Below, piece by piece: positions 9,558-39,829 of a stretch of DNA of 44,817 nt. The stretch lies in IMG/VR virus record IMGVR_UViG_3300019487_000010, positions 1 to 44,817 of that record. One strand, given 5' to 3'. A program made the position numbers and the translations under genes. The notes under the pieces are model-generated. The model was given only the letters and a program-made list of their open reading frames with translations. It did no database searches and was not told the origin of the DNA. The stretch's first letter is position 1, and each line of letters starts with the position of its first letter. This stretch comes from a virus.

Positions 9558-10544
9558 CTAGTTGTCGACCTTGACGATGGTACGGGGCTCCCAGATGCCC
9601 CAGCCGGACCGGCTGTCCCAGCCGACCCCGTCCTCCTTCGTGTTCCGCGACACGTCGGAGTTGTCCCGGGTCTGCTCGTCCTGGAGGATGGCCTGCCGGT
9701 TCTGCTGGCAGAACGGCTTCACGTCCAGCCCGATGCAGATCATGTACCAGTCGTCGCCGGTGACGCGCTGGGTCGGGTACAGGGTCGGCATCGGGAACTT
9801 GCCGTTCGCCAGGACGTTCGAGATCGCCGCGGAACCGAGCGGGGTCGCCGGGATCGAGTCCGCCTTGAAGGCGTCGATGAACACCTCGATGTTGTCCGGG
9901 TTGAAGACGAGCATGAACGCGTCGTACTCGAGCTCGCTCGGATCGTAGTAGGGCTCCCCCCCGGTGTCCTGGACCTTGTGGAAGTAGGAGCCGATGGCCC
10001 CCTGGAAGTCCGCCTTGATCGCGGCCGCGGTGGCCACTCCGCTACCGCTGCGGACGTTCCCCGTCGCCACCCCGAAGCGCGACGACCCGCTCAGGAGCGC
10101 TGCCCCGTCGTAGGCGTTCGGGATCGACGGGAGCAGGGACGGGTCGGACGTCGACGTCAGGAGCTGGACCATGATCCGCTCCCGCAGCTGGACGAACCGC
10201 TTCGCCCCGTTGCGGACGCGAGGCATCAGCTGCTTGGTCTGGTCGTCGTCCTTGTCGTTGCGGTTCCACGAGACCCACAGGTTCCAGTCGTGGTTCTCGA
10301 TCTCCACGTAGAACTCGTTGAACGAGTCCTTCTGGCGCGCGGTGAGCCGAGGCCACCGCGAAACCTTGGGCATGGACTCGAAGCCGGCGTGCACCTCGGA
10401 CCGCCGGGTCGAGTCCACCTCCAGGAACGCCTTCTTCACGGCTGCGTTCTCCGCCTTCTGGCGGAGATCGAACGAGCGGTTGAACTCCGCGATGACCGCC
10501 GCGCGGAGGACCCCACTCGTGGTCATGCCTGCGATGCCGGGCAT
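9558..10544 (-). CDS. Major capsid protein, Mu gpT-like (HK97 fold family)
   Basis: The N-terminal pattern EVHAGFESMPKVSRWPRLTARQKDSFNEFYVEIENHDWNLWVSWNRNDKDDD matches the Y.WLG..P.mReW.geR ... y.i.N..fE...v.r..ieDD signature of Mu-like major head subunits. Size (328 aa) and position fit. Confidence 0.75.
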   Translation of the reverse strand: MPGIAGMTTSGVLRAAVIAEFNRSFDLRQKAENAAVKKAFLEVDSTRRSEVHAGFESMPKVSRWPRLTARQKDSFNEFYVEIENHDWNLWVSWNRNDKDDDQTKQLMPRVRNGAKRFVQLRERIMVQLLTSTSDPSLLPSIPNAYDGAALLSGSSRFGVATGNVRSGSGVATAAAIKADFQGAIGSYFHKVQDTGGEPYYDPSELEYDAFMLVFNPDNIEVFIDAFKADSIPATPLGSAAISNVLANGKFPMPTLYPTQRVTGDDWYMICIGLDVKPFCQQNRQAILQDEQTRDNSDVSRNTKEDGVGWDSRSGWGIWEPRTIVKVDN

Positions 10545-11482: not shown

Positions 11483-12715
11483 TCAGCCCTTCAGCTGCTT
11501 CGCTCGCCGCACCCCGGAAGCCGCGGCCTCGAGGAACGCCTTCTTCCCGTGCGGGAACACCTGCCGGAACTGCGCCTCGTTCTCCTCCCAGTCCACCGAC
11601 GCCGCCCGCACCGCCTCGCGGACCTCCTCATCCGCGTCCTTGAACGCGATGAGCTCCTCGTCGTGCCCCCGGCTCTTGACCTTGCCGGGCAGCCCCCGTC
11701 CGGTCGAGATGCGGGGGCGCCCCTCCATGTAGGAGACGATGTAGCTTTCGAGGGCCTTCGTGCCCTTGACGCCGAACTCGGTGATCGTCTCCCGGAGCCG
11801 CTTCTCGTCGAAGAAGACCCCCTCCTCCTTGAAGCGCGTGACCAGGCGCCCGAGGGACTCCTCGTCCGCGCTCTGGGCGTGTCGAGCCTCGAGGGAGTCC
11901 ACGCGGGCCACGAGCCGCCCGAGCGCGGCCTCCTTGAACGGGACCCGAGCGGCGACGCTCGGACCGGGCTCACCCGTGGCCGGCGGCCCGCCCTGGCCCC
12001 CGACCGCCGCGAGGAGCTTCATGAGGAGCTCCTTGATCTCCCCCGCCCACGGCGGAACCTCCGCACCCGCCGTGGGCGGAGGCGGCGCTGGCGGCGGCGC
12101 GGCACCCCCGTCGGGCGGCGACCCGTCCGCGTACTCGGTCTTCTGGTCCTGCTCGTCCGGCTCTTCCGTCTCGAAGCCCATGCACACGTCCTCCTTGAAC
12201 TGCACCCGGCCACCCGTGGTGCTCGGCTGCTCCCAGACACAGGTGACCGGGAGCTTGAAGTACGGCGGGAAGGTCTGCATGAGCGCGAGGCTCTTGAGCT
12301 CCTCCTCGCCAGTGGAAGGCACCTCGGCGCTCCGGTACGGGAGTCTGAGGCTCTTGATCTCTTCGAACACGTCCGGCGGCACCTCTACGAGGTCCACGAA
12401 GATCGTGTCCACCAAGCGCCCGTCGAGCATGAGCGGCCGCACCGCGGGGTTGTCCATGAACCCTGCCGCACGATTCACCCCTGCCACGTCCCCGAGGTGC
12501 TCCACGTGCACTCTCGGCAAGTACCCCTGCGAGTACTTGCGGTGCAGGATCCGCGCGGCGGCTCGCTTGAGCCACCCCGAGGTCAGAGCCACACCCTTCG
12601 CCCCGTCCACCGCCGGAAGCACCGGCACCGCCCGGATCGTGTAGTTGCCGTTGCTCTGCCGCTCCGCCTCGTAGGCGTGGGAGAAGGTATTGCGGAAGGC
12701 GACGCTCCAGGTCAT
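11483..12715 (-). CDS. Putative prohead protease/scaffold (Mu gpI-like)
   Basis: Located between the MuF-like and capsid genes. N-terminal PRVHVEHLGDVAGVNRAAGF...LRLPYRSAEV resembles Mu I-type proteins. It has a Pro/Ala linker and a helical C-terminus that could be a nested scaffold. Confidence 0.5.
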   Translation of the reverse strand: MTWSVAFRNTFSHAYEAERQSNGNYTIRAVPVLPAVDGAKGVALTSGWLKRAAARILHRKYSQGYLPRVHVEHLGDVAGVNRAAGFMDNPAVRPLMLDGRLVDTIFVDLVEVPPDVFEEIKSLRLPYRSAEVPSTGEEELKSLALMQTFPPYFKLPVTCVWEQPSTTGGRVQFKEDVCMGFETEEPDEQDQKTEYADGSPPDGGAAPPPAPPPPTAGAEVPPWAGEIKELLMKLLAAVGGQGGPPATGEPGPSVAARVPFKEAALGRLVARVDSLEARHAQSADEESLGRLVTRFKEEGVFFDEKRLRETITEFGVKGTKALESYIVSYMEGRPRISTGRGLPGKVKSRGHDEELIAFKDADEEVREAVRAASVDWEENEAQFRQVFPHGKKAFLEAAASGVRRAKQLKG

Positions 12716-15700
12716 TCTTTCGCCTTTACCTCAAGATAGGTGATTCCCTCGTCCTCGTCCTTGCGAACACCGGTGATCTGCATCAGCGATGAGCGATTGA
12801 TGACCTCAGCTTCGTTCTCCCACCCCACGTTGGGCGCTATGGCGTGATGAGCCAGGATCGAACTCTTGGGCAGGGTCCCGGTCAAGACCACGGGAACCTT
12901 ACCAGCCTGTGGTTGCGCGTAGTTGTCCAGGACCACGTCCAAGTCCTCAGACCAAGAGGACGCCGCTCTCTGCGGAACCACTCCCTGATCCAGCATGGCC
13001 TGCAAGTCCGACTCGGTCAACTGCATGCCCCGATGAGCCTTGAGAGGCTTGTCTGGCAAGAGCCGCTGCGTCGCTTCGTACAAAGCTTTGACCCGAGGCG
13101 AGTTCTCGGCGACCTCCTTCAAGAGACCCTCGGGCTTTTGCCCGGACTCATCCTCTCCGCCCGTCGACCAGATGTCTAGAAACTCCCCAGTCTCAGCGTA
13201 GTCATTTCCGATGACCTCTTCCCAACGAGCAGCGGCCCTGGGATGAAGCCTCTTGATGTGCGGATGGTCACTGAACCCACCTCCCTCTCGTGGTGTGGGT
13301 CTTTCTCGAACGGGCTTGGGCGGCTCCGCTGGCTTGGGCGGCTCCGCTGGCTTGGGCGGCTCCGCGGGCTTGGACAACGACCCCTGCTCCAGAGCCTCCC
13401 GAACGGTCTTACTCCGAATCTCTGCCACCTTCCTCAAGGGATCGCTTCTGGTGCTCGCGTCGTGGAGGTCCGCCAACAACTTCGAGGATGAATAGCTGCC
13501 TGTCTCCAACTGAGCCACGTGAGCCTTCAACGAAGCCTTCAGGTGTTGGTATGACCTCGGATGCTTAGCGTGGAGCTTGTCATGGGCCTCCATCAGAACC
13601 TTGCTCACGTACGCCCGAGCCTCTGGCTGCAGTTTCGGCGGCTCTGCCTTCGGCGGCGCTGCCTTCGGCGGCTCTGCCTTCGGCGGCTCTGCCTTCGGCG
13701 GCTCTACCTTCGGCCCCAGCCCCGCGAGGTGCTTTCCGAGCGCGCCACCGGGCGAGTCCCTGCCCGCTACTCCGTGCTTCGGGGAGTGAGCTTCTCCCAC
13801 GAGGTCTTGCACGGAGAGGTCCACCCTCGCCGGCGACCCGAGGTCCACCCCGAGGTCCTCCGCGTGAGCCTTCAGGGCCTTCTGAAGGCCCTCATGCCCA
13901 AGAGCGTGAGCCGCGTTCCACGCGTGCTTCAAGAAGCTCTTGCCCAACGACCCTACCCCGTCTCCCATCATCTTCTGGGTGGCGAGCCAAGCCTTGTAGG
14001 TCGCTGCCTCGGGCCCGTGCCAGTCCCCGAGAGACTTGTGCGAAGCAGCGACCGCCCCGAGCTGTCGGATCTTCTCCGAGCCCTGCCCCTTCGAGATGAA
14101 ACGGCCGTTGACGTCACGCGGGTGCAGGTCTTCGTGCCAGCTGACAAACCGCACAACGTCACTGTGCTCACGGAGCTGACGCTGGTACTCGTCCAGCTCA
14201 TCCGCGTCCTCGTCCTCGTCCTCCCAGTAGGGTTCCAACGCGGGTGGTAGCGGATAGTAGTCGAGGTCCAGCTCACCGTCATCGTCGTAGTCATCGCTCT
14301 CGAGAGCCTCGGGCGAGACCCCCTCGGCGAAGGTGACCGTGTGCTCGTTCTCCCTGAGCTTGCCGGGATCATAGCCGACTGACCGCGCAAACTGTTCGAA
14401 AACGTTGGGGTGGATGTAGCTTGAGCGAGCCACCGCAGGGGTGTTCTGGATCACGCCAGAGACTTGCTTCGAAGCCTCCTTCAAGACCCGCGCCATCAGC
14501 TGACCCTGGGCCTTGTCTCCAGCGGGCAACGGCGGGGGCGGCGGAGTTAGGCGCTTGATCGCCTCGCGGCCCTCGCGGGTCGCGACGACTGTGCGAAAGT
14601 CCTTGGGACGAAACCCGAGTCCCGCGGTCTTCTCCGCCACCGCCCCGCGAACGCCCTGCGAGAACACCCTCTCATTCTTGCCCTTACGAGCGTAATGGGT
14701 GAGCGCCGCTACGAGCGCGGGCTCATGCACGGTTACGTCGTTCAGCTTCCCGCTCTTGCCCACGAACTGCAGCCGCACCCCGCCCTTCTCGGGCTTCACG
14801 TGCTGACCCAACAGGGTGGTCACCCCGAAGTGCCCGTGCGCAGCGACCGAGCCCTCGCTGCCAGGCCGGAGCCCGGTCACGGCGATGAGTGAAGCAGCGG
14901 TGGCAGCCTCGTGCTCCGGCGACCCGAGCGGAAGGGACCGCACCTGGCTCAAGAGCCCTGCTCGAGCCTTCTCGTACTTGGGCTCCAGCTTTTCGATCTT
15001 CACCCACTTCTTGGCCGCGTTGGCTTTGACGGTGGCGGCCGTATAGCTCTGCTGGAGCTTGCCGCTCTTGTCCCGCCAGGAGAGGATCGCCTTCCCGTGC
15101 GGGTCCGTGAGGGAGCCTACCCGCACGTCAGTGACGTCGGCCGCTGGGAGCTTCTTGACGCCGAGCTCCTTTAGCTTAGCCTGGACCGTTGGGTGTAGCT
15201 GGCTACCCGGAGCCGCCCGCTTGCCTCCGGGAGCGCCCAGGACTGGGGCTGGTCCCGGCGCCGCCGCTGGTTGCCCGCCTTTGGGGGAAAACTCGCCGCT
15301 GGCGCGCCCGTGTCCAGCGCTCACGCGAGCGTGTTGAGCCTCGTTCCACGCAAACGAGACCGTGTAGGGCTCAGCCACGGGCGCTCGCAGGTGCAGAGCG
15401 TTCCCGAAGCCTACGTCATCCGCTTGCCACGCCGTTGGCACCTCAGGATCACTCCGGGTCCACCCCTTGACCTCAGCTTCGGCGAGCGTGACGGTCCGCA
15501 GGGTGCAGCGACAGTTGAACCCGAGCGGGGGCGTGTGCCCGAACCACGCGGGATGACCCTTCGGCAGGGCCACGCGGTGGCCAGCCTGGTGGTTGTGCCG
15601 AACGTTTGGGTCGTTGGCGGTGAGAAACTGAAAGCCCCAGAGCTTTGGGTGACACCGCGCCTCGAGCACCTTGCCTCGATTGAACGCCTTTACGACGTTC

Positions 15701-16185
15701 GTCCGGTATATGGTCGCCGCGTACGCGTCTGAGAACCCGCCGACCTGCTGGATCAGCCGCTGAGGAGCGACATCGCCTTCACCCGAGTCCAAGAAGCCCA
15801 CGAGGAGGCCACGCACCTTGTTCTCGATCGCCTGCGACGCCGCCCGTGTCACGAAGAAAGGCTCTCCGAACGTGTACTCGTCGATCAGCTGAAGCTGTTC
15901 CGCCTCGGTCAGCGGCGCACGCTCCCCAAACACCTCGACCGCCTTGACGAGGGTCCTCGAGAGGGCATCATCGAGACGATACTGCACCGGCGCTCCGCCG
16001 AGCTCCCGCCTCGCGTCCGCGCGTCCCTCCGTGTGCGCGTAGAAGAGCAGCCGGCGGAGCCCCTCCTCCACCTCCGCGTGCTCAACCTCGACCTCGCTCT
16101 TTCCCCGGGTGAGCCGGTAGACGATGGCGCGAGTGAGCCCTCGAAGGAGGGTACGGGCTCTCTCCTGGGCGGTCGCGAGGCTCAT
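12712..16185 (-). CDS. Polyvalent virion protein: MuF/SPP1 gp7-like head morphogenesis domain + type IB topoisomerase-like domain + repeat linkers + C-terminal ADP-ribosyltransferase-like domain
   Basis: MuF: HPAWFGHTPPLGFNCRCTL (aa ~210-230). TopIB: GLRPGSE, FGVTTLLGQHV, LQFVGKSGK, RPKDFRTVVAT, IQNTPAVARSSYIHP (aa ~335-605). HPRDVNGRF motif at aa 688-696. ART-like R-S-E triad: KAHRG, AASSWSED, WENEAEVI (aa ~1050-1128). Confidence 0.85.
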   Translation of the reverse strand: MSLATAQERARTLLRGLTRAIVYRLTRGKSEVEVEHAEVEEGLRRLLFYAHTEGRADARRELGGAPVQYRLDDALSRTLVKAVEVFGERAPLTEAEQLQLIDEYTFGEPFFVTRAASQAIENKVRGLLVGFLDSGEGDVAPQRLIQQVGGFSDAYAATIYRTNVVKAFNRGKVLEARCHPKLWGFQFLTANDPNVRHNHQAGHRVALPKGHPAWFGHTPPLGFNCRCTLRTVTLAEAEVKGWTRSDPEVPTAWQADDVGFGNALHLRAPVAEPYTVSFAWNEAQHARVSAGHGRASGEFSPKGGQPAAAPGPAPVLGAPGGKRAAPGSQLHPTVQAKLKELGVKKLPAADVTDVRVGSLTDPHGKAILSWRDKSGKLQQSYTAATVKANAAKKWVKIEKLEPKYEKARAGLLSQVRSLPLGSPEHEAATAASLIAVTGLRPGSEGSVAAHGHFGVTTLLGQHVKPEKGGVRLQFVGKSGKLNDVTVHEPALVAALTHYARKGKNERVFSQGVRGAVAEKTAGLGFRPKDFRTVVATREGREAIKRLTPPPPPLPAGDKAQGQLMARVLKEASKQVSGVIQNTPAVARSSYIHPNVFEQFARSVGYDPGKLRENEHTVTFAEGVSPEALESDDYDDDGELDLDYYPLPPALEPYWEDEDEDADELDEYQRQLREHSDVVRFVSWHEDLHPRDVNGRFISKGQGSEKIRQLGAVAASHKSLGDWHGPEAATYKAWLATQKMMGDGVGSLGKSFLKHAWNAAHALGHEGLQKALKAHAEDLGVDLGSPARVDLSVQDLVGEAHSPKHGVAGRDSPGGALGKHLAGLGPKVEPPKAEPPKAEPPKAAPPKAEPPKLQPEARAYVSKVLMEAHDKLHAKHPRSYQHLKASLKAHVAQLETGSYSSSKLLADLHDASTRSDPLRKVAEIRSKTVREALEQGSLSKPAEPPKPAEPPKPAEPPKPVRERPTPREGGGFSDHPHIKRLHPRAAARWEEVIGNDYAETGEFLDIWSTGGEDESGQKPEGLLKEVAENSPRVKALYEATQRLLPDKPLKAHRGMQLTESDLQAMLDQGVVPQRAASSWSEDLDVVLDNYAQPQAGKVPVVLTGTLPKSSILAHHAIAPNVGWENEAEVINRSSLMQITGVRKDEDEGITYLEVKAKE
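13313..13373. repeat. 18-bp tandem repeat x3.4 encoding (PAEPPK)n linker
   Basis: ggcttgggcggctccgct repeated head to tail inside 12712..16185. Confidence 0.9.
13636..13710. repeat. 15-bp tandem repeat x5 encoding (PKAEP)n linker
   Basis: cggcggctctgcctt repeated 5 times with 2 point variants inside 12712..16185. Confidence 0.9.
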
Positions 16186-16376
16186 GCGTCCAACGCCGCC
16201 CTCACCGCGCAGTCCTTGGCCTCGAGGAGCTTCCGCAGAGCCATCTCCCGCTCACTCCCGCTCGGCAGCGTCTCGCAGAGCTCGCGTGCCAAGTCGCCGA
16301 AGAGCCGGCTCACCTTCTGGAGCTTGCCCGGGAGATGGGCGTACGTGAAGTACCTGAGCAACGAGTCCTCATCCAT
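16182..16376 (-). CDS. Hypothetical small protein (64 aa)
   Basis: Coupled ORF between the portal and MuF-like genes. Confidence 0.45.
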   Translation of the reverse strand: MDEDSLLRYFTYAHLPGKLQKVSRLFGDLARELCETLPSGSEREMALRKLLEAKDCAVRAALDA

Positions 16377-17742
16377 GAGCGAGTCCTCCCGCCACGCCTA
16401 GTCCTGATCCTGCGCCCGGCGCTCCCGCGTCAGCGCCCTGAGCCATCTGAAGCGTCATCACGTCATCGTTAGCGTCGGGCTGGCTAAAGCCCTCGAGCGC
16501 CTCGTAGACATCGGTCTTGCGCACCGGAATCTGGTACTTCGCGACCCGGTCAAGGCTGGCCCCTGCTACCTGCGGGTCCGGCTTCTCGATCCCAAGGTGG
16601 AACTCGGGATCCGTCATGTCCCAGACACCCATGGCACGGAGGTTCCGCTCGTTGCACACCCGGAAGCACCGGCAGAGCGCGCCCAGTGACTCCGCGAGGG
16701 TCTCTCGATCGTAGGCGATGAGCGAACCTTCGCTCTGCTTCTCCACCTGAGCGCGGGCCATCGAGCCCTGAGCCTGATCCCCGCCACCCGTCGGCAACAC
16801 CGAGCCCAAGATCCGGGTGGTCAACACCCGATCCACGTAGTTGAGGGACTCCATGACGATGTTCGACCGCGCGTTGTTCGCGCCCGGAGGGGCGAAAGCG
16901 TCGAGCTCCACCGCGTCCATGTCGGACACGAACACGTTGTGCGAGCGTTGCTTCTCCACCTGGGCGATGACCTGGTCTACCAGGGTGGAGTATGTCGTAA
17001 GATCCGTCGCGGACGCTGCGCCCAATAGGTTCTTGATCCTCGCGTGGATCCACCCGAACCCGATCCGGGACGCCCCGCTCGAGAGCGCTTCGAGGAGGAG
17101 GGTCTTCACCGTCCAGTAGTAGACCAGCTGAGCCGCCAACCCGCCTCCGAAGCCCAGGTGGCGATCCGCGGTGTCGTACTGATGCCAGATCACCATGTGC
17201 TGGTTGGTCTCGTCCAGCACCACCCACGCCTCACGATAGACATCGAAGAGCGTCCACCGCTGCGTGCGGTCGTCACCGAACTCCACCCGCAAGCGCCCCT
17301 TGTCCACGTCCTCGAGGTGCGTCGGCACCCACCACCGGCGAACCGTCCAGTCCCCGGGCATGAGCAAGCGAGCCCACGTACCGTGAATCACGGCGACCGC
17401 GGTGCCTGCGAAGAACGCTCGCGCGAGGTTGAACCTCGCGGAGCTGAACCGCGCCACGTGATCGAGCGCCCGCTGGTAGATCGGCACCAGGAAGCTGGAC
17501 TCCTCATCGCCCGGGTGCAGGCTCACCCCGCGCGAGGTCCCAGCCACCAGGTGCTGTCGGTACGAGAGAGCGCTTGAGATGACCAGCTCACGCTGGACCT
17601 TCTCGTAGAACTCGCTGTCGACCTTGAGTGCTTGGTCCGGGTCGTCGAGCCACGTCTGAAGACGCTTCAGCGCCATCAGCATGCGACTCGTGAAGGTGTT
17701 CAGGTGCTGGTAGAGCGCCAGCCGGGTCTCCGCTTCGCTCAT
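16369..17742 (-). CDS. Portal protein (by position and size)
   Basis: 457-aa ORF directly after the large terminase and before the MuF-like gene. No single diagnostic motif. Confidence 0.6.
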   Translation of the reverse strand: MSEAETRLALYQHLNTFTSRMLMALKRLQTWLDDPDQALKVDSEFYEKVQRELVISSALSYRQHLVAGTSRGVSLHPGDEESSFLVPIYQRALDHVARFSSARFNLARAFFAGTAVAVIHGTWARLLMPGDWTVRRWWVPTHLEDVDKGRLRVEFGDDRTQRWTLFDVYREAWVVLDETNQHMVIWHQYDTADRHLGFGGGLAAQLVYYWTVKTLLLEALSSGASRIGFGWIHARIKNLLGAASATDLTTYSTLVDQVIAQVEKQRSHNVFVSDMDAVELDAFAPPGANNARSNIVMESLNYVDRVLTTRILGSVLPTGGGDQAQGSMARAQVEKQSEGSLIAYDRETLAESLGALCRCFRVCNERNLRAMGVWDMTDPEFHLGIEKPDPQVAGASLDRVAKYQIPVRKTDVYEALEGFSQPDANDDVMTLQMAQGADAGAPGAGSGLGVAGGLAHG

Positions 17743-19439
17743 CGATGCGTCACCCTTGTCGCTGGCTTCAGCCCCGCAAAGGGATCGAAGAGCTCCTCTC
17801 GCGGAAGAGGCGCCGGCAAACCCCTCATCGGGTCGAACGACCGTCGAAGCTGGCTCGCTAGGCAGTCATACGAGTCCGCGAGCCGCTGATGGTCCTTGCA
17901 CTTCGACCAGACCCACCGCTGCTTCCCGCTCTGCGGGTTCGTGAGCAACAGCCGCTTGGGCCCGGTCATCTCCTCCTCGTACTCGCCGAAGGCGAGATCA
18001 CGCCACGCGGACGGAAGCCACGCCACGCGGTTCACGATGTCCGAGAACGCGTCGTCGAGCAACGCTGTGCGGTCTACCCGGAGCAGCCGCTCCTCCTCGT
18101 CCACGTGCGTGTCCCGAAGGTACGTGCCCTCGGCGCCCGCGAACTCGCACCGCCACACCGAGACCGCGTGCCACAGGCGGTTCACCCAGTCCCGCACCCG
18201 CTTGACCTCGGGGAGGGCGTCGACCACCATGGTGGTCACACGGTAGCGAGCGATCAAGGCGAAGAGCTCATCGTCGCTGGACAGCTTACCCGCGAACACC
18301 AGTCGGCGACGACCGGGCGGGTAGTCACTCACCCGCACATCGAGGAACGCACCCACGTCCACGCCCATCGTGCAAGGCCCGTACTCGGTCTGCCCCGACG
18401 GGAGCTCATACTCGGGCTCCACGCACCGGTCAAGGAGCTCTGCCGTGAGCATGGCCTCGCCGTGTTCGAACGGCAGCCCGAGGTCGCTGTTGGTGAACGC
18501 CTGAAGCCCCGTGAGGCTTCGGCGAAGCCGCTCATAACGGCGGTACAGGTCGCTGAGGCGGTTGGTAGGCGTCGGAAGCTTGCCCAACTGCCACCCGCTC
18601 ACCGGGCGACCCGGAAACCTCGCGCGCCACTCTCCGCGCCCCAGACGGTTGACCGGGGACCCGCACCGTGAGCAGATCGGCAGGAGGTCCCTCTCCGGGT
18701 CCCCGTCCCAAGCCTCGTCCCGACGCTCCACGGTCAGCAGCGCCCCGCGCCCGTCACGGCGCTCACGGACCACGTGGTCATACCACGTGATGTGCTGCCA
18801 GAGCTCGCACGAGTCGCACGGGACGAACCACTCCTTCCAGTCGCTCTCGTCGCACACCCAGCGTGCTATGCCCGCTCCAGCCATGGTAGGGTTGCCGCTG
18901 AGCACCGTGTGCTTCAGGTCGCTGGCGCCCAGCCGGTCATTCGCGTACTCGAGGAACACCGAGTCACACTCGTCGAGCTCGTCGACGATGACCGCGTCAG
19001 CGGGGTACTCCTTGAACGCGGAGAGCGACCCCGAGCCGACGTAACGACAGGTGCCTCGACCGAGGGCCTTCAGCCCCTTGTTGTCCGCGCCAGCCGCCGC
19101 CATAAACAGCTGACGGTACGCGGGCAGGCGGAGCGGCCGATCCACCCGGTTGGTCACGAAGACGTTCTTGAGCTCATCCTTGGGCAGGACGTAGAAGACG
19201 GCCGCTCCGTGAGCGCACAGAGCGAACTTGCGCAGGATCAGGAACTCGGTCTTGCCACTCTGCGTTCCCGTCATGATCGCTATGTCGCGGGTGTTGTCCC
19301 GGTACAGCGCCTCGAGGAAGGGCCATCGCTCGAAGTCGAGCGGCTCGCCGCGGGTCGAACGGTGCACCCTCGTGGCCAGGACCCACTGGGTGTCGACGAT
19401 CCGACGGAGCACCGCTCGTACGGTCTCAGCGGTGTACAC
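17739..19439 (-). CDS. terL: Terminase large subunit (GpA-like)
   Basis: Walker A MTGTQSGKTE, Walker B AVIVDELDE, Zn-ribbon CDSCELW...CSRCGSP, and a C-terminal nuclease-size domain. Confidence 0.85.
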   Translation of the reverse strand: MYTAETVRAVLRRIVDTQWVLATRVHRSTRGEPLDFERWPFLEALYRDNTRDIAIMTGTQSGKTEFLILRKFALCAHGAAVFYVLPKDELKNVFVTNRVDRPLRLPAYRQLFMAAAGADNKGLKALGRGTCRYVGSGSLSAFKEYPADAVIVDELDECDSVFLEYANDRLGASDLKHTVLSGNPTMAGAGIARWVCDESDWKEWFVPCDSCELWQHITWYDHVVRERRDGRGALLTVERRDEAWDGDPERDLLPICSRCGSPVNRLGRGEWRARFPGRPVSGWQLGKLPTPTNRLSDLYRRYERLRRSLTGLQAFTNSDLGLPFEHGEAMLTAELLDRCVEPEYELPSGQTEYGPCTMGVDVGAFLDVRVSDYPPGRRRLVFAGKLSSDDELFALIARYRVTTMVVDALPEVKRVRDWVNRLWHAVSVWRCEFAGAEGTYLRDTHVDEEERLLRVDRTALLDDAFSDIVNRVAWLPSAWRDLAFGEYEEEMTGPKRLLLTNPQSGKQRWVWSKCKDHQRLADSYDCLASQLRRSFDPMRGLPAPLPREELFDPFAGLKPATRVTHR

Positions 19440-20501: not shown

Positions 20502-20540
20502 CGCCTCGATCTCCTCCGGACTGGGCCCCGTTTCCGGGGA

Positions 20541-20662
20541 GGCTCCCCTGTATTCAAACTGCACTTTTGTTCCCCAGCCCCTCCCCGCACCGGCGGGCAC
20601 GCGCCCGCGCCCGCGCAGGAAGCCCCTTTTGCACAAAAGTGCAGTTTGAATACAGGGGAGCC
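20541..20662. repeat. Palindromic element copy 1: 30-bp perfect terminal inverted repeats around a 62-nt GC-rich spacer
   Basis: 20541-20570 GGCTCCCCTGTATTCAAACTGCACTTTTGT is the exact reverse complement of 20633-20662. A second copy lies at 39696-39817. Confidence 0.9.
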
Positions 20663-22050: not shown

Positions 22051-22452
22051 TTAGTCGTGGTGACGACGGGGGCGACGACGGGGCTGGCCAGGCACGGAGC
22101 CGTTCGGCGGCGGCGCGACCTCGGGCCGCTTTTCCGCGAGAAACGCACGCCGGAGCGCTTCGGGCAAGAGCTCAAGCCGATCCTCCTTCTTCGCCGCTGC
22201 GACTCGCTCCGCGCACGCGTGGCAGAGCCGCACGCTCAACATGCACAGGTCCCCGATGACCACGTGGGTGATCACGTAGTGCTGGGTGTGGACCCAGCAC
22301 CCGTGGCAGGCTCCCTCGGGGAGCTTCTCGGGCTGAACCCTCGTGGGCACCGTGTTCGTCATGAGCTCCCGCACAAACCGCTTGTGGTCCTCGGTCACCT
22401 CCTCGTGTTTGAGCCCCAGGATCTTGATCGCAGCTTCAGTCCACCTGCTCAT
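22051..22452 (-). CDS. Hypothetical Cys/His-rich protein (133 aa)
   Basis: ORF with CHGCW...CHAC motifs, coupled to the ligase gene. Confidence 0.5.
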   Translation of the reverse strand: MSRWTEAAIKILGLKHEEVTEDHKRFVRELMTNTVPTRVQPEKLPEGACHGCWVHTQHYVITHVVIGDLCMLSVRLCHACAERVAAAKKEDRLELLPEALRRAFLAEKRPEVAPPPNGSVPGQPRRRPRRHHD

Positions 22453-23203
22453 CGGCGAGCTCCTTGTCCTCGCGCACCCGTACGAGGCGGGGGAACCGGA
22501 GCCGCCCGCCCGCCGCGACGCTGTCGTAGGCTACCTCGACCACCATGCCCGCGCGCCAGCTCGTGAAGAGCTGAGCTCGCACCTCGTCGGTCATCCCGCT
22601 CACGTTCGCGACCACCGTGCCGTCTCGGCGAGCGCACACCAGCGAGCCGAGGGTCCCTGCGAACTTCCCCGCTGAGCCCTCCTTGACGTCCACGACCTGG
22701 AGGTCGCAGGTCCGCACGGGCTTGAGCTTGTACGTGTCGTACACGCACCGCTTGTGACGGTAGACCAGCCCCTCCCAGGCTGCGGCCTGGAGGAAGCGAA
22801 GCGCGTCTACCTCGTCGAGAGCCTTGTACGAGACCACGTGTGGAGTCTCGAGCCCGAGCCGCTTGAGCAGGAGCACGTGCTTTCTCGTGGAGAGCTCCTC
22901 CCACGGACCCTCCGGGGTCTCGAGCACCTGCCACGCGGTGAACCGCACCCGCCTCACTCCCGCCTTCAAGGCGGTCAACACCGCGGTCGCGGGCTCAGCC
23001 TCGAGCCACGCCTCGCCTAGAACGACGAACCCGGGTGGGACCCCGGGTAGGGGTCGCCTCGGGTAGCGGGTACGTTCGCCCGTGAACGAGTTCCTCCCTC
23101 GTCCCAGGGCGTCTTCCCGAGAGAGGGTCACCTGGAGCCCGTCGTACTTCCGTTCGACGAGCGTGAGCCCCGGCGGGATCAGCCCCGCCCTCCATGGCTT
23201 CAT
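22436..23203 (-). CDS. lig: ATP-dependent DNA ligase (small, T7-like)
   Basis: Motif I ERKYDGLQV (KxDG), motif IV EGLVYRHK, motif V YKLKPV. I chose the ATG at 23203, which shares its A with the upstream TGA. Confidence 0.8.
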   Translation of the reverse strand: MKPWRAGLIPPGLTLVERKYDGLQVTLSREDALGRGRNSFTGERTRYPRRPLPGVPPGFVVLGEAWLEAEPATAVLTALKAGVRRVRFTAWQVLETPEGPWEELSTRKHVLLLKRLGLETPHVVSYKALDEVDALRFLQAAAWEGLVYRHKRCVYDTYKLKPVRTCDLQVVDVKEGSAGKFAGTLGSLVCARRDGTVVANVSGMTDEVRAQLFTSWRAGMVVEVAYDSVAAGGRLRFPRLVRVREDKELADEQVD

Positions 23204-23430
23204 CAGCACCTCCAGTAGAGGGCGTCTCGCCCGCACCGCGGGCACGTTTGAGCAATGCCGCTCCCCACTCGGAGGTGAAGCCAGCCGCTGACGAGGTGAC
23301 TTACCACCTCGTCAGCGCGCATGACCCCCGGCTCGTCGGAGGGAAGCGGCACCACGATCCCGCCGCACTGGCAGGCGATCATCTCTCCAGGCGGGTAGGC
23401 GAAGGTGCGGCGAGTGAGCGGGCTCACCAC
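23203..23430 (-). CDS. Small zinc-ribbon protein (75 aa)
   Basis: CQC ... CPRC cysteine pairs; GTG start. Confidence 0.45.
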   Translation of the reverse strand: MVSPLTRRTFAYPPGEMIACQCGGIVVPLPSDEPGVMRADEVVSHLVSGWLHLRVGSGIAQTCPRCGRDALYWRC

Positions 23431-23988: not shown

Positions 23989-24003
23989 CTGCTGTCTCCT
24001 GTC

Positions 24004-24066
24004 CGCCTACCTCGTCAGCGCGCGGAGGCGACCCGCGCGGACCCCGCCCGTAGGCGGGGTTTCGGC
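24004..24066 (-). ncRNA. Type II hammerhead ribozyme motif HH-A
   Basis: Minus strand: GCC-GAAA-CCCCGCC-UACG-GGCGGGG-U-C/CGCGCGG-GUCGCCU-CCGCGCG-CUGACGA-GGU-AGGCG. All core nucleotides are present, with a GUC cleavage triplet and a loop I / 3' tail pseudoknot. Confidence 0.8.
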
Positions 24067-24067
24067 T

Positions 24068-24511
<444 letters not shown>

Positions 24512-24534
24512 CTTTCTCGCTCCTGTCTCCGAGG

Positions 24535-24597
24535 AACCTGCCTCGTCAGCGCGCGGAGGTCACCCGCGCGGACCCCACCTGCGGGCGGGGTTTCGGC
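24535..24597 (-). ncRNA. Type II hammerhead ribozyme motif HH-B
   Basis: Minus strand: GCC-GAAA-CCCCGCC-CGCA-GGUGGGG-U-C/CGCGCGG-GUGACCU-CCGCGCG-CUGACGA-GGC-AGGUU. The core is intact, and the differences from HH-A preserve pairing. Confidence 0.8.
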
Positions 24598-24885
24598 TCA
24601 GAAGTTCAGGCAGCCCGACTTGCCGCTGCCGTACCGAACCCGGATCTGCGTGAGCCTGAACCTGAGGAGCTCCCGCTTGGAGGTGTACTGGCCGTTCACA
24701 GCCTGGAAGTCCTTGTTTTCGTCGAAGTCCCTCTGCGCAGCCTCGAGGGAAGGGTACTTTCGGCCGTACGCGGCGCGGAGCGGCTCCAGCCCGAAGAGGC
24801 TGAAGGGGAACCCCGCTAGGCGGCCCTCGTTCGCGCCCTTCGCCTGGTCATCGAAGCTCTCCTGAAACCGCTCGAGGTTGCTCAT
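24598..24885 (-). CDS. Hypothetical protein (95 aa; possibly N-terminally longer, up to 24987)
   Basis: ATG at 24885 preceded by AGGAGAACC. The track ORF extends through a Pro/Ala-rich stretch from a GTG at 24987. Confidence 0.5.
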   Translation of the reverse strand: MSNLERFQESFDDQAKGANEGRLAGFPFSLFGLEPLRAAYGRKYPSLEAAQRDFDENKDFQAVNGQYTSKRELLRFRLTQIRVRYGSGKSGCLNF

Positions 24886-25012: not shown

Positions 25013-25033
25013 TTTCTGCTGTCTCCTTCTGTC

Positions 25034-25096
25034 CGCCTGCCTCGTCAGCGCGCGGAGGCGACCCGCGCGGACCCCGCCCGTAGGCGGGGTTTCGGC
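25034..25096 (-). ncRNA. Type II hammerhead ribozyme motif HH-C
   Basis: Identical to HH-A except that stem II position 10.3 is C instead of U, so G:C replaces G:U. Confidence 0.8.
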
Positions 25097-25105
25097 TCTA
25101 CGGCT

Positions 25106-28835: not shown

Positions 28836-29711
28836 CTACTCCTCCAGGTACAGGTAAGCAGGAATGTGAGCGGGTATGTAGGCGACTCGACCGTGCACCG
28901 GGGACAGGTGCAGGCTCGCGCCACAGAGATCGTAGACCGTTCCGGTGTACGTGGACTCGACCTGCGGGCAGGACTCGGTGGCCTGACAGTGGACCGGTGG
29001 CACGAACATGTTCGAGGCCTCACCCTTCACCGCGATCTTCTTCCACCAGCACCCGGGGTTGCATCCCTCAGGGAGGAGCGGGGCCAGCCATGGAGACGCC
29101 ACGAGGAGGGCTTCACGGAGCTTCACCGTGAAGACCAACTGCTCGTGGGACTGGGTCTGCGGGCACCGCCTCGAACGATAGAGGTTGAGCAGAGCCGCGA
29201 GGTTCAGGTGCACGTAGATGAAGGAGCTAGCCCCGCTGGGCAGGGAAAACCGGGCCTCGTAGGGCGTTACCTGACGAGAGTCCAGCAGATCAGCGTAGAG
29301 CGTCTTCTGGAGGAGCGCGAAGTGCACGTACCGTCGGAGCAAGGGCCCGCGCAAGACCCGGGGTACTAGCACATCGTCGTCTCGGCAGTCACGATCGCCC
29401 GTGCACTGCTGGCTGAAGGTCACTCCAACGCGCGCGCGAACCAACTGGTGGGTAAAGAACCTCGAGACACCGGTCAGGAGCAAGGTCCAGTGGAGCTCCT
29501 CCTGCCGGTTCCAGAGCGCGCCCTTCATAAGCTCCGGCGACCACTCCTGCTCCCGGGGAGCGTCGAGGTGGCATGCGCCTACCGCCTGCGCGGCTGCTCG
29601 AAGGTCCTCCTCCGAGGGGGCCTTCAAGACCTTCACGGTGCAAGCCTCGGTCAGGTCCAAGAACCTCGTACGCGGCATGGCATCCCAGTGCCAGTCAATC
29701 TTCCCGGTCAT
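28836..29711 (-). CDS. thyX: Divergent flavin-dependent thymidylate synthase (ThyX)-like protein
   Basis: SRFFTHQLVRARVGVTFSQQCTGD aligns with the ThyX motif sR...HQlvRHR..SfSQQSqRY, but with RHR->RAR, S->C and R->G. I chose the ATG at 29711, which shares a base with the MazG-like stop. Confidence 0.65.
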   Translation of the reverse strand: MTGKIDWHWDAMPRTRFLDLTEACTVKVLKAPSEEDLRAAAQAVGACHLDAPREQEWSPELMKGALWNRQEELHWTLLLTGVSRFFTHQLVRARVGVTFSQQCTGDRDCRDDDVLVPRVLRGPLLRRYVHFALLQKTLYADLLDSRQVTPYEARFSLPSGASSFIYVHLNLAALLNLYRSRRCPQTQSHEQLVFTVKLREALLVASPWLAPLLPEGCNPGCWWKKIAVKGEASNMFVPPVHCQATESCPQVESTYTGTVYDLCGASLHLSPVHGRVAYIPAHIPAYLYLEE

Positions 29712-30034
29712 CAGAACCTCCTGTCTGTCTTGGTGACCGCAGGCTTCTGCTCGTTGTGCCGGAGCTTCGCCAGTACCGCCTTCTCGATACGCCACCGCTC
29801 TCGCCCCGCGAGGTTCAGCAGAGCGAGCACCACGTCCGCAGCCTCCTCCTCGATCTGAAGGAAGCCTGGCAGCCTGGTGCTGGGGCGAGCCTCGCGGGCT
29901 CGGTGTTCCATGAACACCTCAGACACCTCGCTGTGCACCAACGCTATCTGGCTCGCGAGCGTAGACTGCTCCCACCAACCCTTCGCGATGGCACAGGCGA
30001 AGGCCCTGTCCGCCAAGTCCGTCAGCTGCCCCAT
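29711..30034 (-). CDS. MazG-like nucleoside triphosphate pyrophosphohydrolase
   Basis: LVHSEVSEVFME ... IEEEAADVVLALLNLA gives the EvsE ... EE.aDv pattern in a ~107-aa all-helical protein. Confidence 0.65.
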   Translation of the reverse strand: MGQLTDLADRAFACAIAKGWWEQSTLASQIALVHSEVSEVFMEHRAREARPSTRLPGFLQIEEEAADVVLALLNLAGRERWRIEKAVLAKLRHNEQKPAVTKTDRRF

Positions 30035-30039
30035 CTACC

Positions 30040-30597
30040 TCACAGCCTCCCCCTGAGCTCAGTGTACCGCCGGATGAACGCCTCCCGCGCCGCGTCCCGT
30101 GGCCACGCCGGCCACACTGGCATGGTCGGGCCCTGGACTGGCTGGTCCCTCGTGAGGCTCCAACCGAGCTCCCCGAAGTACGCTACAGTCTCCTGCCGAC
30201 AGAGCTCACGGTCAGCCGACTTGACCGCAGCCCAATGAGCACACGGAAAGTCCTCCCCCTCTGCGACCTGTTCCAGGAGCCAGTCCTCGAGGGCGATGAG
30301 CTCCTTTCCCGCGAGGTGTCGAATTGGAGCCACCAAGTCCCCGATGATCATCTCTCCCACGTCGTGGAGCAGGCCCGCCAGCGCCAGGTGAGGCGCCACC
30401 ATGTAGCTAACCAACACCGAGTGCTGAGCCACGGTGTAGGGGATGTAGCCGTTGAAACGGGTCTGACCAGCAAGGCTGGTAGCAGCTTGGGTCAACCGAG
30501 CCCAGGTGGTCCATCTGAAGTCCCGCACCACCAAGTACTCCACCGGCTCCGTAACGAGGAGCTTGAGCTCCCTGAACCGCTCCGGAATGACGCTCAC
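30040..30597 (-). CDS. HD-domain phosphohydrolase (YfbR-type 5'-deoxynucleotidase-like)
   Basis: YTVAQHSVLVSYMV ... LLHDVGEMIIGDLVAPI (H ... HD ... D). I chose the GTG at 30597, which forms a GTGA overlap with the upstream stop. Confidence 0.65.
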   Translation of the reverse strand: MSVIPERFRELKLLVTEPVEYLVVRDFRWTTWARLTQAATSLAGQTRFNGYIPYTVAQHSVLVSYMVAPHLALAGLLHDVGEMIIGDLVAPIRHLAGKELIALEDWLLEQVAEGEDFPCAHWAAVKSADRELCRQETVAYFGELGWSLTRDQPVQGPTMPVWPAWPRDAAREAFIRRYTELRGRL

Positions 30598-31151
30598 ACG
30601 ATCCTCCCCTGCCACGGGCTCTTGGTGAGCGGAGAGCCGTCCCTGAGCCACTTGTCGAGCTCCGCTGCTCCCACGAGGTAGTCGTCGAACCCCTCCGCCA
30701 GCATCAGGTTCACCGCCGCCGGGTAGTCCGAGTAGAACGCAAGGAGGTGCGGCTTACCCGCTATCTGGCGCCTCGCGTACGCGTAGCCGAGCTCCCAGAC
30801 CGTGCCCGTGTCCGGGAGAGCCAACGGCGGCGAGAAGGTTGGCACCTGCACAGCACCGGAGAGGAAGGACCGCGTGAGCAACGCAGCGGGCTCGGGCATC
30901 GTCACCACCCGGAGGCTCTGCCGGGGCGGGAGAGCGTAGGTGAGCACCGCCAGGACCAGGTCCGCGTCAGCCACGTGCTGGCAGTTCAGCTCGAACGCCC
31001 TCTGCCGCTCGAGCGCGCTACCGTCCGGGGCGACAAAACACTCCCGACGAGGGCTGAACACCTGGTGGTGCGGGTCGAGCGCGTTCTCGAGCTCGTTGAT
31101 CAGCCCCACCTGGACGGGATTGAAGAACGGGCCTGCCAAGTAGAACCTCAT
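30594..31151 (-). CDS. Nucleoside 2-deoxyribosyltransferase-like protein
   Basis: The N-terminal MRFYLAGPFFNP signature (YlAGPfF), a later WELGYAYA and the size are consistent with the NDT/Rcl fold. Confidence 0.6.
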   Translation of the reverse strand: MRFYLAGPFFNPVQVGLINELENALDPHHQVFSPRRECFVAPDGSALERQRAFELNCQHVADADLVLAVLTYALPPRQSLRVVTMPEPAALLTRSFLSGAVQVPTFSPPLALPDTGTVWELGYAYARRQIAGKPHLLAFYSDYPAAVNLMLAEGFDDYLVGAAELDKWLRDGSPLTKSPWQGRIV

Positions 31152-31744
31152 AGCTGTTGAATCCTCCGCTGATGTTTTTCCGTCAGAAAATGAGGAGCGG
31201 TTAGATAGAGCCCCTCCATCGAGATGAGCTCAGGCGCTCGATCCTCCATCTCGAGCCACTCATACCAGAGTGCGTGCCACGCTTGACGCTGAGCGAGCAC
31301 CCGCGTCTCAGTTGCCCACGACAACTGACGGTGTCTCCGCGCCACCGTCGGTGTCAGCACCTGAGAGGTTTCCCTGGTGATCCAGGAGCGCCTCTCCCTC
31401 CGCTCCTGCACCACCTCCACGGGCTCTCTCAGCATGATCTCGGTCACGTCTCCAAGAGACCGCATGAATTCGAGAGCCTTCGGGTGGTGAAAGCCTGGTG
31501 GACGCACATAGAGCCACTTGGCAGCCGTCACGACAGGTGCGTAGAACGTCGTCTCCCGCTCCCACCCCGGAAGGAACAGGAGATGCCCTTCCGCGGAGAG
31601 GACTCGCCCGAGGAACCCGTGCCCGGTCTCTGACACGACGAGGTTGGTCAAAAACCACGCGGTGGGAGCCACCGCACGCCTCACGTTGAGCTCGAGGGTG
31701 CTCTTGCCCGACCCAGGTGGCCCGCTAACCACGACGTTACGCAT
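31148..31744 (-). CDS. P-loop NTPase / nucleotide kinase-like protein
   Basis: Walker A VVVSGPPGSGKSTL at the N-terminus; ~198 aa. Confidence 0.55.
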   Translation of the reverse strand: MRNVVVSGPPGSGKSTLELNVRRAVAPTAWFLTNLVVSETGHGFLGRVLSAEGHLLFLPGWERETTFYAPVVTAAKWLYVRPPGFHHPKALEFMRSLGDVTEIMLREPVEVVQERRERRSWITRETSQVLTPTVARRHRQLSWATETRVLAQRQAWHALWYEWLEMEDRAPELISMEGLYLTAPHFLTEKHQRRIQQL

Positions 31745-39502: not shown

Positions 39503-39691
39503 CTACGGCAAAACCTCCACGAACAGGTTCACCGTCTGCCCGGGCTGAAGCCCCCAGTCGCTCGGGAACAAGAGCGCCCCGACCTCGCGGAGCGCCCCTC
39601 GCTCGTCTCGCTCCGCGAACGTCACCTGAAGGGCTCCTGGCTTCGGAGCCATCTGAACTCCGAACACGACCACCTTCACGCTCTGGTTCAT
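39503..39691 (-). CDS. Hypothetical small protein (62 aa)
   Basis: I chose the ATG at 39691. Its SD (AGGGGAG) lies inside the 3' arm of the palindromic element. Confidence 0.4.
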   Translation of the reverse strand: MNQSVKVVVFGVQMAPKPGALQVTFAERDERGALREVGALLFPSDWGLQPGQTVNLFVEVLP

Positions 39692-39695
39692 GGGC

Positions 39696-39817
39696 GGCTC
39701 CCCTGTATTCAAACTGCACAATTTGAAAAGTGGCTATGCCTGCGCGGGCGCGGGCGCGTGCCCGCCGGTGCGGGGCTCCCCTTTTGCACAAAAGTGCAGT
39801 TTGAATACAGGGGAGCC
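39696..39817. repeat. Palindromic element copy 2: 24-bp perfect terminal inverted repeats around a 74-nt spacer
   Basis: 39696-39719 is the exact reverse complement of 39794-39817. The arms are identical to copy 1, and the 37-nt core is inverted relative to copy 1. Confidence 0.9.
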
Positions 39818-39829
39818 TCCCAGAGCTTT

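Follow-up and report, generated by a model that had tools for sequence, protein, structure and literature searches.

A predicted type IB topoisomerase within a MuF-type phage head protein, and its relatives fused to portal and MuF proteins

The IMG/VR virus record IMGVR_UViG_3300019487_000010, analysed over its whole length of 44,817 nucleotides (nt) and called the window in the following, represents an entire phage genome, some 44.7 kb long, whose genes lie nearly all on the minus strand. The subject of this analysis is one of these genes, encoding a multidomain protein of 1157 amino acids (aa), here called MuF-TopIB, in which an N-terminal MuF domain is followed by a predicted type IB topoisomerase (TopIB). 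The gene is part of a Mu-like head operon, composed, in this order, of the genes for the terminase, a portal protein of the Portal_Mu family, a 64-aa open reading frame (ORF), MuF-TopIB, a 410-aa protein, a 266-aa protein and the gpT-like major head protein. Stop and start codons overlap along the operon, by 4 nt between the end of MuF-TopIB and the start of the 410-aa gene. Within this arrangement MuF-TopIB fills the slot of gpF, downstream of the portal, as expected for the MuF/SPP1 gp7 family.

A MuF/SPP1 gp7-type N-terminus had been proposed in the original prediction, derived from the sequence alone, and is recovered by profile searches. The Pfam family Phage_Mu_F (PF04233) matches with E values of 3e-9 for the whole protein and 2e-10 for the isolated segment, at 38-41.7 bits against a gathering cutoff of 29.6. 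The core of the match extends over aa 128-229 and includes the motif GFNCRCTL (aa 222-229), while PHROG 220, described as 'minor head protein and DNA pilot', is matched with an E value of 4e-18.

The same prediction had recognized a TopIB signature in the 1157-aa protein, and every motif quoted in it was found at the place given: GLRPGSE at aa 438-444, FGVTTLLGQHV at 453-463, LQFVGKSGK at 472-480, RPKDFRTVVAT at 526-536 and IQNTPAVARSSYIHP at 579-593. The codon assigned to the catalytic tyrosine, Y590, was likewise placed correctly, and the span proposed, 14371-15183, does correspond to aa 335-605; the full module proved to be slightly larger, starting at aa 329 and ending at aa 630. It consists of a small N-terminal beta domain and a catalytic domain. 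The Pfam family Topoisom_I (PF01028) spans aa 389-601, with E values of 1e-12 for the whole protein (48.4 bits) and 8e-14 for the segment (52 bits), against a gathering cutoff of 23.7 bits. A phmmer search of the PDB returned as top match the TopIB of Deinococcus radiodurans (2f4q/3m4a, E 3e-10), whose residues R137, K174, N280 and Y289 pair with R440, K477, N581 and Y590 of the window protein; the KDFRT motif, which carries the second arginine, is aligned too. The pairing of N581 with N280 bears out the suggestion that Asn stands at the position of His as in bacterial TopIB.

The catalytic set R440, K477, R531, N581 and Y590 is therefore complete and in order. The five corresponding columns are invariant both in an alignment of 34 homologues, including phage and bacterial enzymes, and among 42 long fused homologues; such invariance among fused proteins suggests that the enzyme has been kept active. 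An AlphaFold2 model of aa 329-630, built on the 34-homologue alignment, reached a predicted local distance difference test score (pLDDT) of 92.2 and a predicted template modelling score (pTM) of 0.87. When this model was compared with the PDB by using Foldseek, the complexes of variola TopIB with DNA ranked first (E about 1e-13, template modelling score 0.71-0.73), with about 290 aligned columns, so that both the small N-terminal and the catalytic domain are covered. The Deinococcus and human enzymes came next, TopIB matches ranging in E value from 1e-13 to 1e-8, and the nearest tyrosine recombinase, XerH, was reached at only 3e-3. The identity of the module as a tyrosine recombinase or protelomerase was considered and rejected, as no such Pfam match was obtained and recombinases rank far below TopIBs by fold. 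Profile and structure searches, proposed as a check at the outset, both recover a TopIB fold, and the module is predicted, from sequence and model together, to be a TopIB that is complete, matches the poxvirus enzyme in size and retains an intact active site.

The fusion is present in more than one assembly. A contig from a separate run (L060, SRR7811987), independently assembled and 99.96% identical to the window over 6.9 kb, encodes residues 1-836 of MuF-TopIB without any change (100% identity), which indicates that the junction between the MuF and TopIB parts is real; an assembly chimera as the source of the fusion was thereby ruled out. A metagenome contig found in ENA (ERZ27251177) is 99.8% identical to the window, which is a variant of it; the two differ by one indel, and the MuF-TopIB gene is called 5 codons shorter in the ENA contig. 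This shortening would fit one unit of the 15-nt Pro-rich repeat described below. The ENA gene call for the protein (L059, 7558-11016) carries no Pfam family on record, neither domain having been flagged by precomputed annotation. The pattern of GC content at the three codon positions (GC1/GC2/GC3) usual for the genes of this genome persists across all 1157 codons of the ORF; GC3 is somewhat lower, 0.69-0.74, in the C-terminal 200 aa or so. The features of the gene and of the head operon are collected in Table 1.

Table 1. Features of the MuF-TopIB gene and of the surrounding head operon. Coordinates refer to the window; amino acid positions refer to the 1157-aa protein.
Feature	Coordinates	Strand	Basis
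MuF-TopIB multidomain head protein gene, 1157 aa	12712..16185	-	ORF; Mu gpF position
MuF (SPP1 gp7 / Mu gpF) domain, aa 83-264	15394..15939	-	Pfam PF04233; PHROG 220; local HMM envelope
Junction motif copy 1 (SFAWNEAQHARVSAGHGRASGEF), aa 278-299, just upstream of TopIB	15289..15354	-	regex survey
Type IB topoisomerase module, predicted complete, aa 329-630	14296..15201	-	Pfam, PDB phmmer, AlphaFold2, Foldseek
Catalytic R440 codon	14866-14868	-	motif location, alignment
Catalytic K477 codon	14755-14757	-	motif location, alignment
Catalytic R531 codon	14593-14595	-	motif location, alignment
Catalytic N581 codon	14443-14445	-	motif location, alignment
Catalytic Y590 codon	14416-14418	-	motif location, alignment
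Acidic tail after TopIB, aa 631-680, net charge -18, with DLDYYPLPPALEPYWEDEDED / DLDYYPLPPALEPYW	14146..14295	-	charge count, homologue comparison
Junction motif copy 2 (VSWHEDLHPRDVNGRF), aa 682-696	14098..14142	-	regex survey
Orphan middle domain, aa 697-820	13726..14097	-	no family match
Pro-rich tandem repeat EPPKA, 15-nt period, 5.4 copies; linker	13634..13714	-	Tandem Repeats Finder
Orphan helical segment, aa 851-937	13375..13635	-	no significant Pfam match
Second Pro-rich tandem repeat PAEPPK, 18-nt period, 3.4 copies; linker	13313..13373	-	Tandem Repeats Finder
Orphan C-terminal domain, aa 957-1157	12715..13317	-	no Pfam, PDB or homologue match
Terminase large subunit	17739..19439	-	PHROG 675, E 3e-53; GpA_ATPase match on record
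Mu-type portal protein, 457 aa	16369..17742	-	Pfam Portal_Mu, E 1e-12, nearly whole profile
64-aa ORF between portal and MuF genes, overlapping both	16182..16376	-	ORF call; translationally coupled
410-aa gene, Mu gpI/gpZ (protease/scaffold) position	11483..12715	-	position only; no family match
266-aa structural protein	between the 410-aa gene and the major head protein gene
Major head protein, Mu-like gpT	9558..10544	-	Pfam Mu-like_gpT, E 3e-11; PHROG 371

Homologues were collected by two procedures: a word-indexed search with the TopIB segment, and an exhaustive HMMER search in which the whole protein was compared with 1.84 billion cluster representatives. The word-indexed search detected only short, stand-alone TopIBs, 40-45% identical and located on phage-like contigs, which suggested a fusion unique to the window phage. 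This was overturned by the exhaustive search, where 99 matches were obtained at E <1e-30, every one of them through the TopIB segment. Among the best 150 matches, 139 were newly found representatives, with a median length of 743 aa; 84 of them measure at least 560 aa, and in the long ones TopIB is mostly C-terminal.

A Pfam scan of the 84 long representatives revealed 26 portal matches (23 to Portal_Mu and three to Phage_portal_3) and five matches to Phage_Mu_F. Domains characteristic of injected, 'polyvalent' effector proteins were also detected, namely ART-PolyVal, ADPrib_exo_Tox, ART, Acb1 (an anti-CBASS nuclease), NUDIX and LigT/2H phosphoesterases, together with InPase, Kinase-PolyVal, Zeta_toxin, SNF2 helicases and one complete NAD-dependent ligase. 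MuF is joined to TopIB in proteins of 599 aa (P0224) and 968 aa (P0166), and Portal_Mu to TopIB in P0123. A triple fusion, portal-MuF-TopIB, is seen in P0181 (1184 aa), and in P0133 (1621 aa) a DUF5661-TopIB arrangement is followed by the complete NAD-dependent DNA ligase, with its BRCT domain.

Where the genes are not fused they may stand side by side. The module is split in contig L001, in the order Portal_Mu, TopIB (266 aa), a 42-aa ORF and MuF. In L009, the contig encoding P0123, terminase is followed by Portal_Mu-TopIB, a stand-alone ADP-ribosyltransferase (ART), a 46-aa ORF and MuF. Like the 64-aa ORF of the window, the small ORFs of L001 and L009 (42-46 aa) lie directly upstream of the MuF gene. 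In L009 (8001-11355) the Portal_Mu-TopIB gene overlaps the ART gene by 20 nt, and the pair may represent a split or frameshifted portal-TopIB-ART polyprotein. TopIB is found after the portal gene and before giant SAP and SNF2 proteins in L004, and amid structural genes in L002 and L006.

In IMG/VR, relatives were found on 48 viral contigs. At least 560 aa are encoded by 25 of the 44 complete TopIB ORFs, and MuF was detected in seven of the 23 scanned. The local MuF hidden Markov model (HMM) used here is far less sensitive than Pfam; it recovered seven proteins, among them that of the window and three of its own seeds, and was used for domain order only: wherever it detects MuF, the domain is N-terminal to TopIB. 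Distant stand-alone matches in IMG/VR have heterogeneous neighbourhoods, including giant-virus contigs, and were uninformative.

Twelve close sequences were used as queries against the genomes of 185,579 bacterial and archaeal species. Ordinary cellular TopIBs with 25-36% identity were the closest obtained, compared with 40-46% on phage contigs, which indicates a phage-specific clade; being absent from these cellular genomes, the clade is also absent from their prophages. A comparison with 50,697 deposited phage records yielded no close relative of the window phage (terminase at most 25% identical), and no MuF-TopIB fusion is present among deposited phage genomes. The sole annotated match there is a stand-alone 'top1E' in Bacteroides phage BS162P1, amid hypothetical genes; the only portal relative (P0261, 30% identity) is followed by an unannotated 454-aa gene, with no TopIB. 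The clade is associated with portal, MuF and polyvalent proteins repeatedly and irrespective of lineage, and the window TopIB is assigned, by sequence comparison, to a phage-specific clade tied by fusion or adjacency to portal-vertex proteins.

Other elements accompany the module within the protein. Two copies of a motif of the type [FW]xExxH[PA]R...GxF bracket it. A regular expression survey found 24 copies of this motif in 22 of 259 TopIB-clade proteins, against 0.8 expected from shuffled sequences, usually at the junction before TopIB; it also occurs in P0123, P0124, P0150 and others. The acidic tail adjoining the module has a net charge of -18, that of the module itself being +17. Among 65 homologues continuing past TopIB, an acidic stretch is present in 41, and 21 of these 41 match a 'YPLPxWW'-type pattern. 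In L009 both the acidic tail and the junction motif stand at the start of the next gene, the ART. We read the two elements as module boundaries. The junction motif may be cut by a protease, serve in packaging or mark the boundary of a module, and the acidic 'YPLPxWW' tail may mimic DNA, inhibit the enzyme to which it is attached or bind a partner.

About 480 aa of orphan domains, with Pro-rich linkers between them, follow the acidic tail. For the 527 residues beyond TopIB no relatives were detected in Pfam, in the PDB or by word-indexed homologue searches, and the middle domains (aa 697-937) gave no Pfam, PHROG or PDB match. In the C-terminal domain, residues R1052, S1076-x-x-S1079 and E1125-x-E1127, seen by eye and unverified, resemble the R-S-E signature of ADP-ribosyltransferases. 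Nothing was matched by this domain in Pfam at E <=10, nor in the word-indexed homologue search and the PDB search, and no recognized toxin domain was matched in these C-terminal 200 aa. Comparison with the L009 ART by BLASTP gave an E value of 1.4, and hhalign against a profile of five phage ART sequences a probability of 0.5%; a single-sequence AlphaFold2 model had a pLDDT of 43 and was unusable. An ART gene does adjoin TopIB in the related phage contig L009, as described above.

Outside the head operon, the replication genes are clustered at 26-39 kb, where PolA, a primase-helicase, an SNF2 helicase and a ThyX-like protein are encoded; the genome also codes for an ATP-dependent ligase. Among the 42 window ORFs scanned, none was recognized as an integrase, repressor or transposase, an absence of evidence which carries moderate weight only. 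The window phage is probably a virulent, tailed phage with a Mu-like head. A nucleotide-metabolism cluster at 28836-31744 (minus strand) encodes ThyX-like, nucleoside 2-deoxyribosyltransferase-like and P-loop kinase-like proteins; the DNA ligase gene lies outside it, at 22436-23245 (minus strand), and the two together may serve DNA base modification.

Two sets of repeats were noted. A 77-nt sequence occurs three times, about 500 nt apart (23996-24072, 24527-24603 and 25026-25102); its copies are 78-100% identical, contain a GC-rich hairpin and a T-run, and lie in the sole part of the genome where the AT skew is unusual and minus-strand ORFs are sparse. A role as terminators or regulatory repeats is conceivable. 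Two palindromes, each about 126 nt long, at 20537-20662 and 39691-39822, share the sequence GGCTCCCCTGTATTCAAACTGCAC... and are each formed by an inverted repeat with a 12-nt spacer. They are found 19 kb apart, at module boundaries, and are candidate bidirectional promoters, operators or origins. Finally, an exact direct repeat of 123 nt is present at both termini (bases 1-123 are identical to 44695-44817). As it falls within coding sequence, it is probably an overlap from circular assembly and not a physical end; its use as a genome end on which TopIB might act was therefore rejected, and no inference was drawn from it.

From these data we infer that the enzyme of MuF-TopIB relaxes DNA and that the protein is packaged. 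With a probability of roughly 55%, the MuF domain targets TopIB to the capsid, the enzyme is delivered together with the DNA, and it acts by relaxing DNA when infection begins. A capsid-borne, injected enzyme is supported by the gpF slot occupied by the gene, by the fusions found throughout the clade and by the placement of unfused TopIB genes between portal and MuF. According to this scheme, TopIB would clamp duplex DNA and nick it through a 3'-phosphotyrosyl bond at Y590, so that torsional stress of either sign would be relieved in the entering genome, and perhaps in host DNA, before phage genes are expressed. TopIB requires neither ATP nor Mg2+, and so could act immediately. On the way to the cell, the MuF domain would dock the protein at the portal or procapsid in few copies, as for SPP1 gp7, the one family member known to bind the portal, present in 1-2 copies per capsid (PMC5576092). 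Either whole, or cut at the junction motifs by the head protease, the protein would remain in the DNA-filled head and exit via the tail together with the genome; more speculatively, the acidic tail might keep the basic enzyme from binding the packaged DNA until release takes place.

Published data on related systems are compatible with such a route. MuF fusions have been proposed as phage-delivered effectors (Iyer et al. 2017, PMC5512222). The structure of the Mu portal lacks the last 124 residues, which its authors ascribe to cleavage by head protease I (PMC11915804); since the C-terminus of the Mu portal is reportedly cleaved, portal-fused cargo could be freed inside the head. The vaccinia TopIB is co-packaged with the early transcription machinery, and it contacts and crosslinks the virion ligase (PMC6336343); an early-acting TopIB carried by a phage virion would follow the same logic.

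Several points weigh against delivery of the enzyme with the genome. Packaging, ejection and activity are inferred for the window phage and for all members of the clade. Portal-fused versions would stay in the capsid unless cleaved, and a role within the capsid fits them at least as well. The window TopIB is internal to its protein, and not at the C-terminal 'cargo' end typical of MuF fusions. Close stand-alone homologues in L005, near clamp and HNH genes, and in L007 are less clearly related to head genes, and the TopIBs of jumbo phages have been interpreted as replication genes (PMC7824862). As to the substrate, the phage genome and the host chromosome are both candidates.

The portal fusions bear on a different reading, in which TopIB is not injected and works in the head, at the portal vertex, as a swivel for the twist arising during DNA entry or exit. 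Besides the 26 portal-domain matches in the 84 long homologues, it may be noted that TopIB comes after the portal domain in the two mapped proteins, P0123 and P0181; so placed, it would sit inside the capsid beside the DNA channel, where a cofactor-free enzyme could function, and MuF proteins themselves bind the portal (PMC5576092). We nevertheless consider this unlikely: many of the fusion partners are host-directed effectors (ART, Acb1, NUDIX, 2H), pointing to delivery, the protease processing reported for Mu (PMC11915804) may release TopIB from the portal, and linear DNA with a free end should shed twist without an enzyme. An equally low probability is given to the broader form of the idea, that many tailed phages station TopIB at the portal vertex, through the inner end of the portal or through MuF, as a built-in DNA swivel for both packaging and ejection. 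It is also quite unlikely that the protein is missing from mature virions, with MuF serving for assembly only and TopIB acting, in the cell that produces the phage, on intermediates of replication or recombination or on concatemers during their packaging, in which case the fusion would only ensure late co-expression. The interpretation of jumbo-phage TopIBs as topology or replication genes (PMC7824862), the proximity of some stand-alone homologues to replication genes (L005) and the poorly defined function of the MuF domain (PMC5576092) all agree with it. Co-expression alone is hard to square with repeated, independent fusions to two portal-vertex proteins and to packaging-adjacent polyvalent proteins, and in the window the replication genes are clustered elsewhere.

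Poxvirus TopIB is able to transfer strands to foreign acceptors, and the enzyme might accordingly be a strand-transferase acting after entry on the ends of the phage's own genome, by joining or circularizing them or by a protective covalent attachment. The complete NAD-dependent ligase joined to TopIB in P0133, the ATP-dependent ligase of the window phage itself and the crosslinking of virion TopIB with virion ligase in vaccinia (PMC6336343) would suit such a function. It appears very unlikely, as both fold and sequence are those of a true TopIB and not of a protelomerase or recombinase, no target site was identified, and the 123-nt terminal repeat, which looks like a circular-assembly overlap, says nothing on the real ends. 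Still lower in our estimate, and highly improbable, is a polymorphic MuF toxin of a temperate phage, with TopIB or the C-terminal domain as a DNA-damaging toxin in bacterial competition. The layout, an N-terminal MuF followed by enzymatic domains, is indeed that of MuF toxins (PMC5576092), and relatives with ART and Zeta-toxin domains exist. In the survey of these toxins an ORF of less than 150 aa follows 89% of the genes, and topoisomerase is missing from its tables (PMC5576092); the window has no small immunity-type ORF downstream, the next gene coding for 410 aa and overlapping the stop codon. Nor does a temperate lifestyle agree with the lack of integrase, repressor and transposase in the 42 ORFs scanned, with the phage's own PolA, primase-helicase and ligase, or with the absence of the clade from the 185,579 cellular genomes and hence from their prophages. 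All residues for religation-competent catalysis are retained, which also argues against a toxin.

Enzymes that are taken up into the phage head and enter the cell along with the DNA are known, examples being T4 Alt, N4 RNA polymerase and MuF-fused toxins; to our knowledge, no topoisomerase has so far been placed among them. If TopIB does travel with the genome, a cofactor-free enzyme would give phages a new means of controlling supercoiling within seconds of the onset of infection. Its target could be the entering genome of the phage itself, so as to permit early transcription or replication, or the host nucleoid, so as to disturb supercoiling-dependent host expression or defence. In either case, a strategy hitherto described for poxviruses would be extended to bacterial viruses. 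The portal fusions raise the possibility that DNA torsion is handled enzymatically in packaging and ejection, which would make a long-debated physical question directly testable; a portal swivel, if real, would be without precedent as an enzyme shown to control DNA torsion within a phage capsid. The clade, the 'EHPR...GxF' junction motif and the acidic 'YPLPxWW' tail offer defined constructs for biochemistry, and may be used as markers for capsid-delivered cargo in metagenomic phages.

The original prediction had further noted no known description of a capsid-borne TopIB in tailed phages. This stands for the fused and virion-associated forms: full-text searches of the literature, limited to open-access papers, turned up no description of a phage TopIB associated with MuF, portal or virion, which does not prove absence. 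Stand-alone TopIBs of jumbo phages have been mentioned, the nearest prior mention being one sentence on 'phage-specific' TopIB in some of these phages (PMC7824862). As a cargo, TopIB is absent from the text of the MuF-toxin survey and from 750,000 characters of its supplements (PMC5576092), and is not among the domains named in the main text of PMC5512222. Enzymatic cargo linked to MuF or portal proteins, and polyvalent proteins, are known classes; TopIB as such a cargo appears to be new.

Phage-encoded, 'phage-specific' TopIBs are known from the jumbo phages phiRSL1, Lu11, PaBG, Motura and NCTB (Iyer et al. 2021, PMC7824862). They measure 541-562 aa and are treated as DNA-topology or replication genes, not as virion proteins (PMC7824862). 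They are too distant to appear in tblastn at E 1e-3; the highest-ranking phage proteins in a fold search of BFVD are those of Motura and PaBG, and none there is described as a MuF or portal fusion. Cellular TopIBs are distant as well (at most 36% identical) and encoded by stand-alone chromosomal genes. Most of them carry the N-domain signature Top1B_N_bact of Pfam, which the close phage clade does not. The Deinococcus radiodurans enzyme (2f4q/3m4a) is the best sequence match among solved structures and shares the R-K-R-N-Y set.

MuF-fused effectors and toxins (Jamet et al. 2017, PMC5576092), such as the EFV ADP-ribosyltransferase, share with the window protein an N-terminal MuF, an enzymatic cargo, a location in the packaging/head module and a presumed travel in the capsid. 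In the window, by contrast, the cargo is a topoisomerase, TopIB is internal with further domains after it, and neither an immunity-like ORF nor signs of a temperate lifestyle are present. Polyvalent proteins, as presented by Iyer et al. 2017 (PMC5512222), combine several effector domains in one polypeptide and are encoded beside virion genes. Relatives of the window TopIB do occur in such proteins, together with ART-PolyVal, Kinase-PolyVal, SNF2, 2H and InPase domains. The window protein is composed of MuF, TopIB and three orphan segments, encoded in a head operon, with one enzymatic domain identified; none of the polyvalent hub domains (MPTase, ART, SNF2, ParB and others) was found in it by profile search. 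T4 Alt, P1 DarB and the N4 virion RNA polymerase are, according to PMC5512222, loaded into the head, injected and active before phage gene expression; their activities and capsid-targeting mechanisms are different, and none is a topoisomerase.

A further parallel is with the poxvirus TopIB (vaccinia H6R, variola), which provides the best structural matches to the window module (2h7f, 2h7g, 3igc). The two share a similar minimal size of about 300 aa and the arrangement of a small N-terminal and a catalytic domain, at a sequence identity of about 18%, and differ at one catalytic position, where the poxvirus enzyme has His and the window protein Asn581. The poxvirus TopIB is free, and the window TopIB forms part of a capsid protein; the former is proven to be packaged, whereas genomic context points to packaging of the latter. 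Encoded by the virus and made late, the poxvirus enzyme enters the particle along with the machinery for early transcription, and the fusion of TopIB to portal or MuF in related phages suggests, by analogy, that tailed phages may carry a TopIB in their capsids as poxviruses do.

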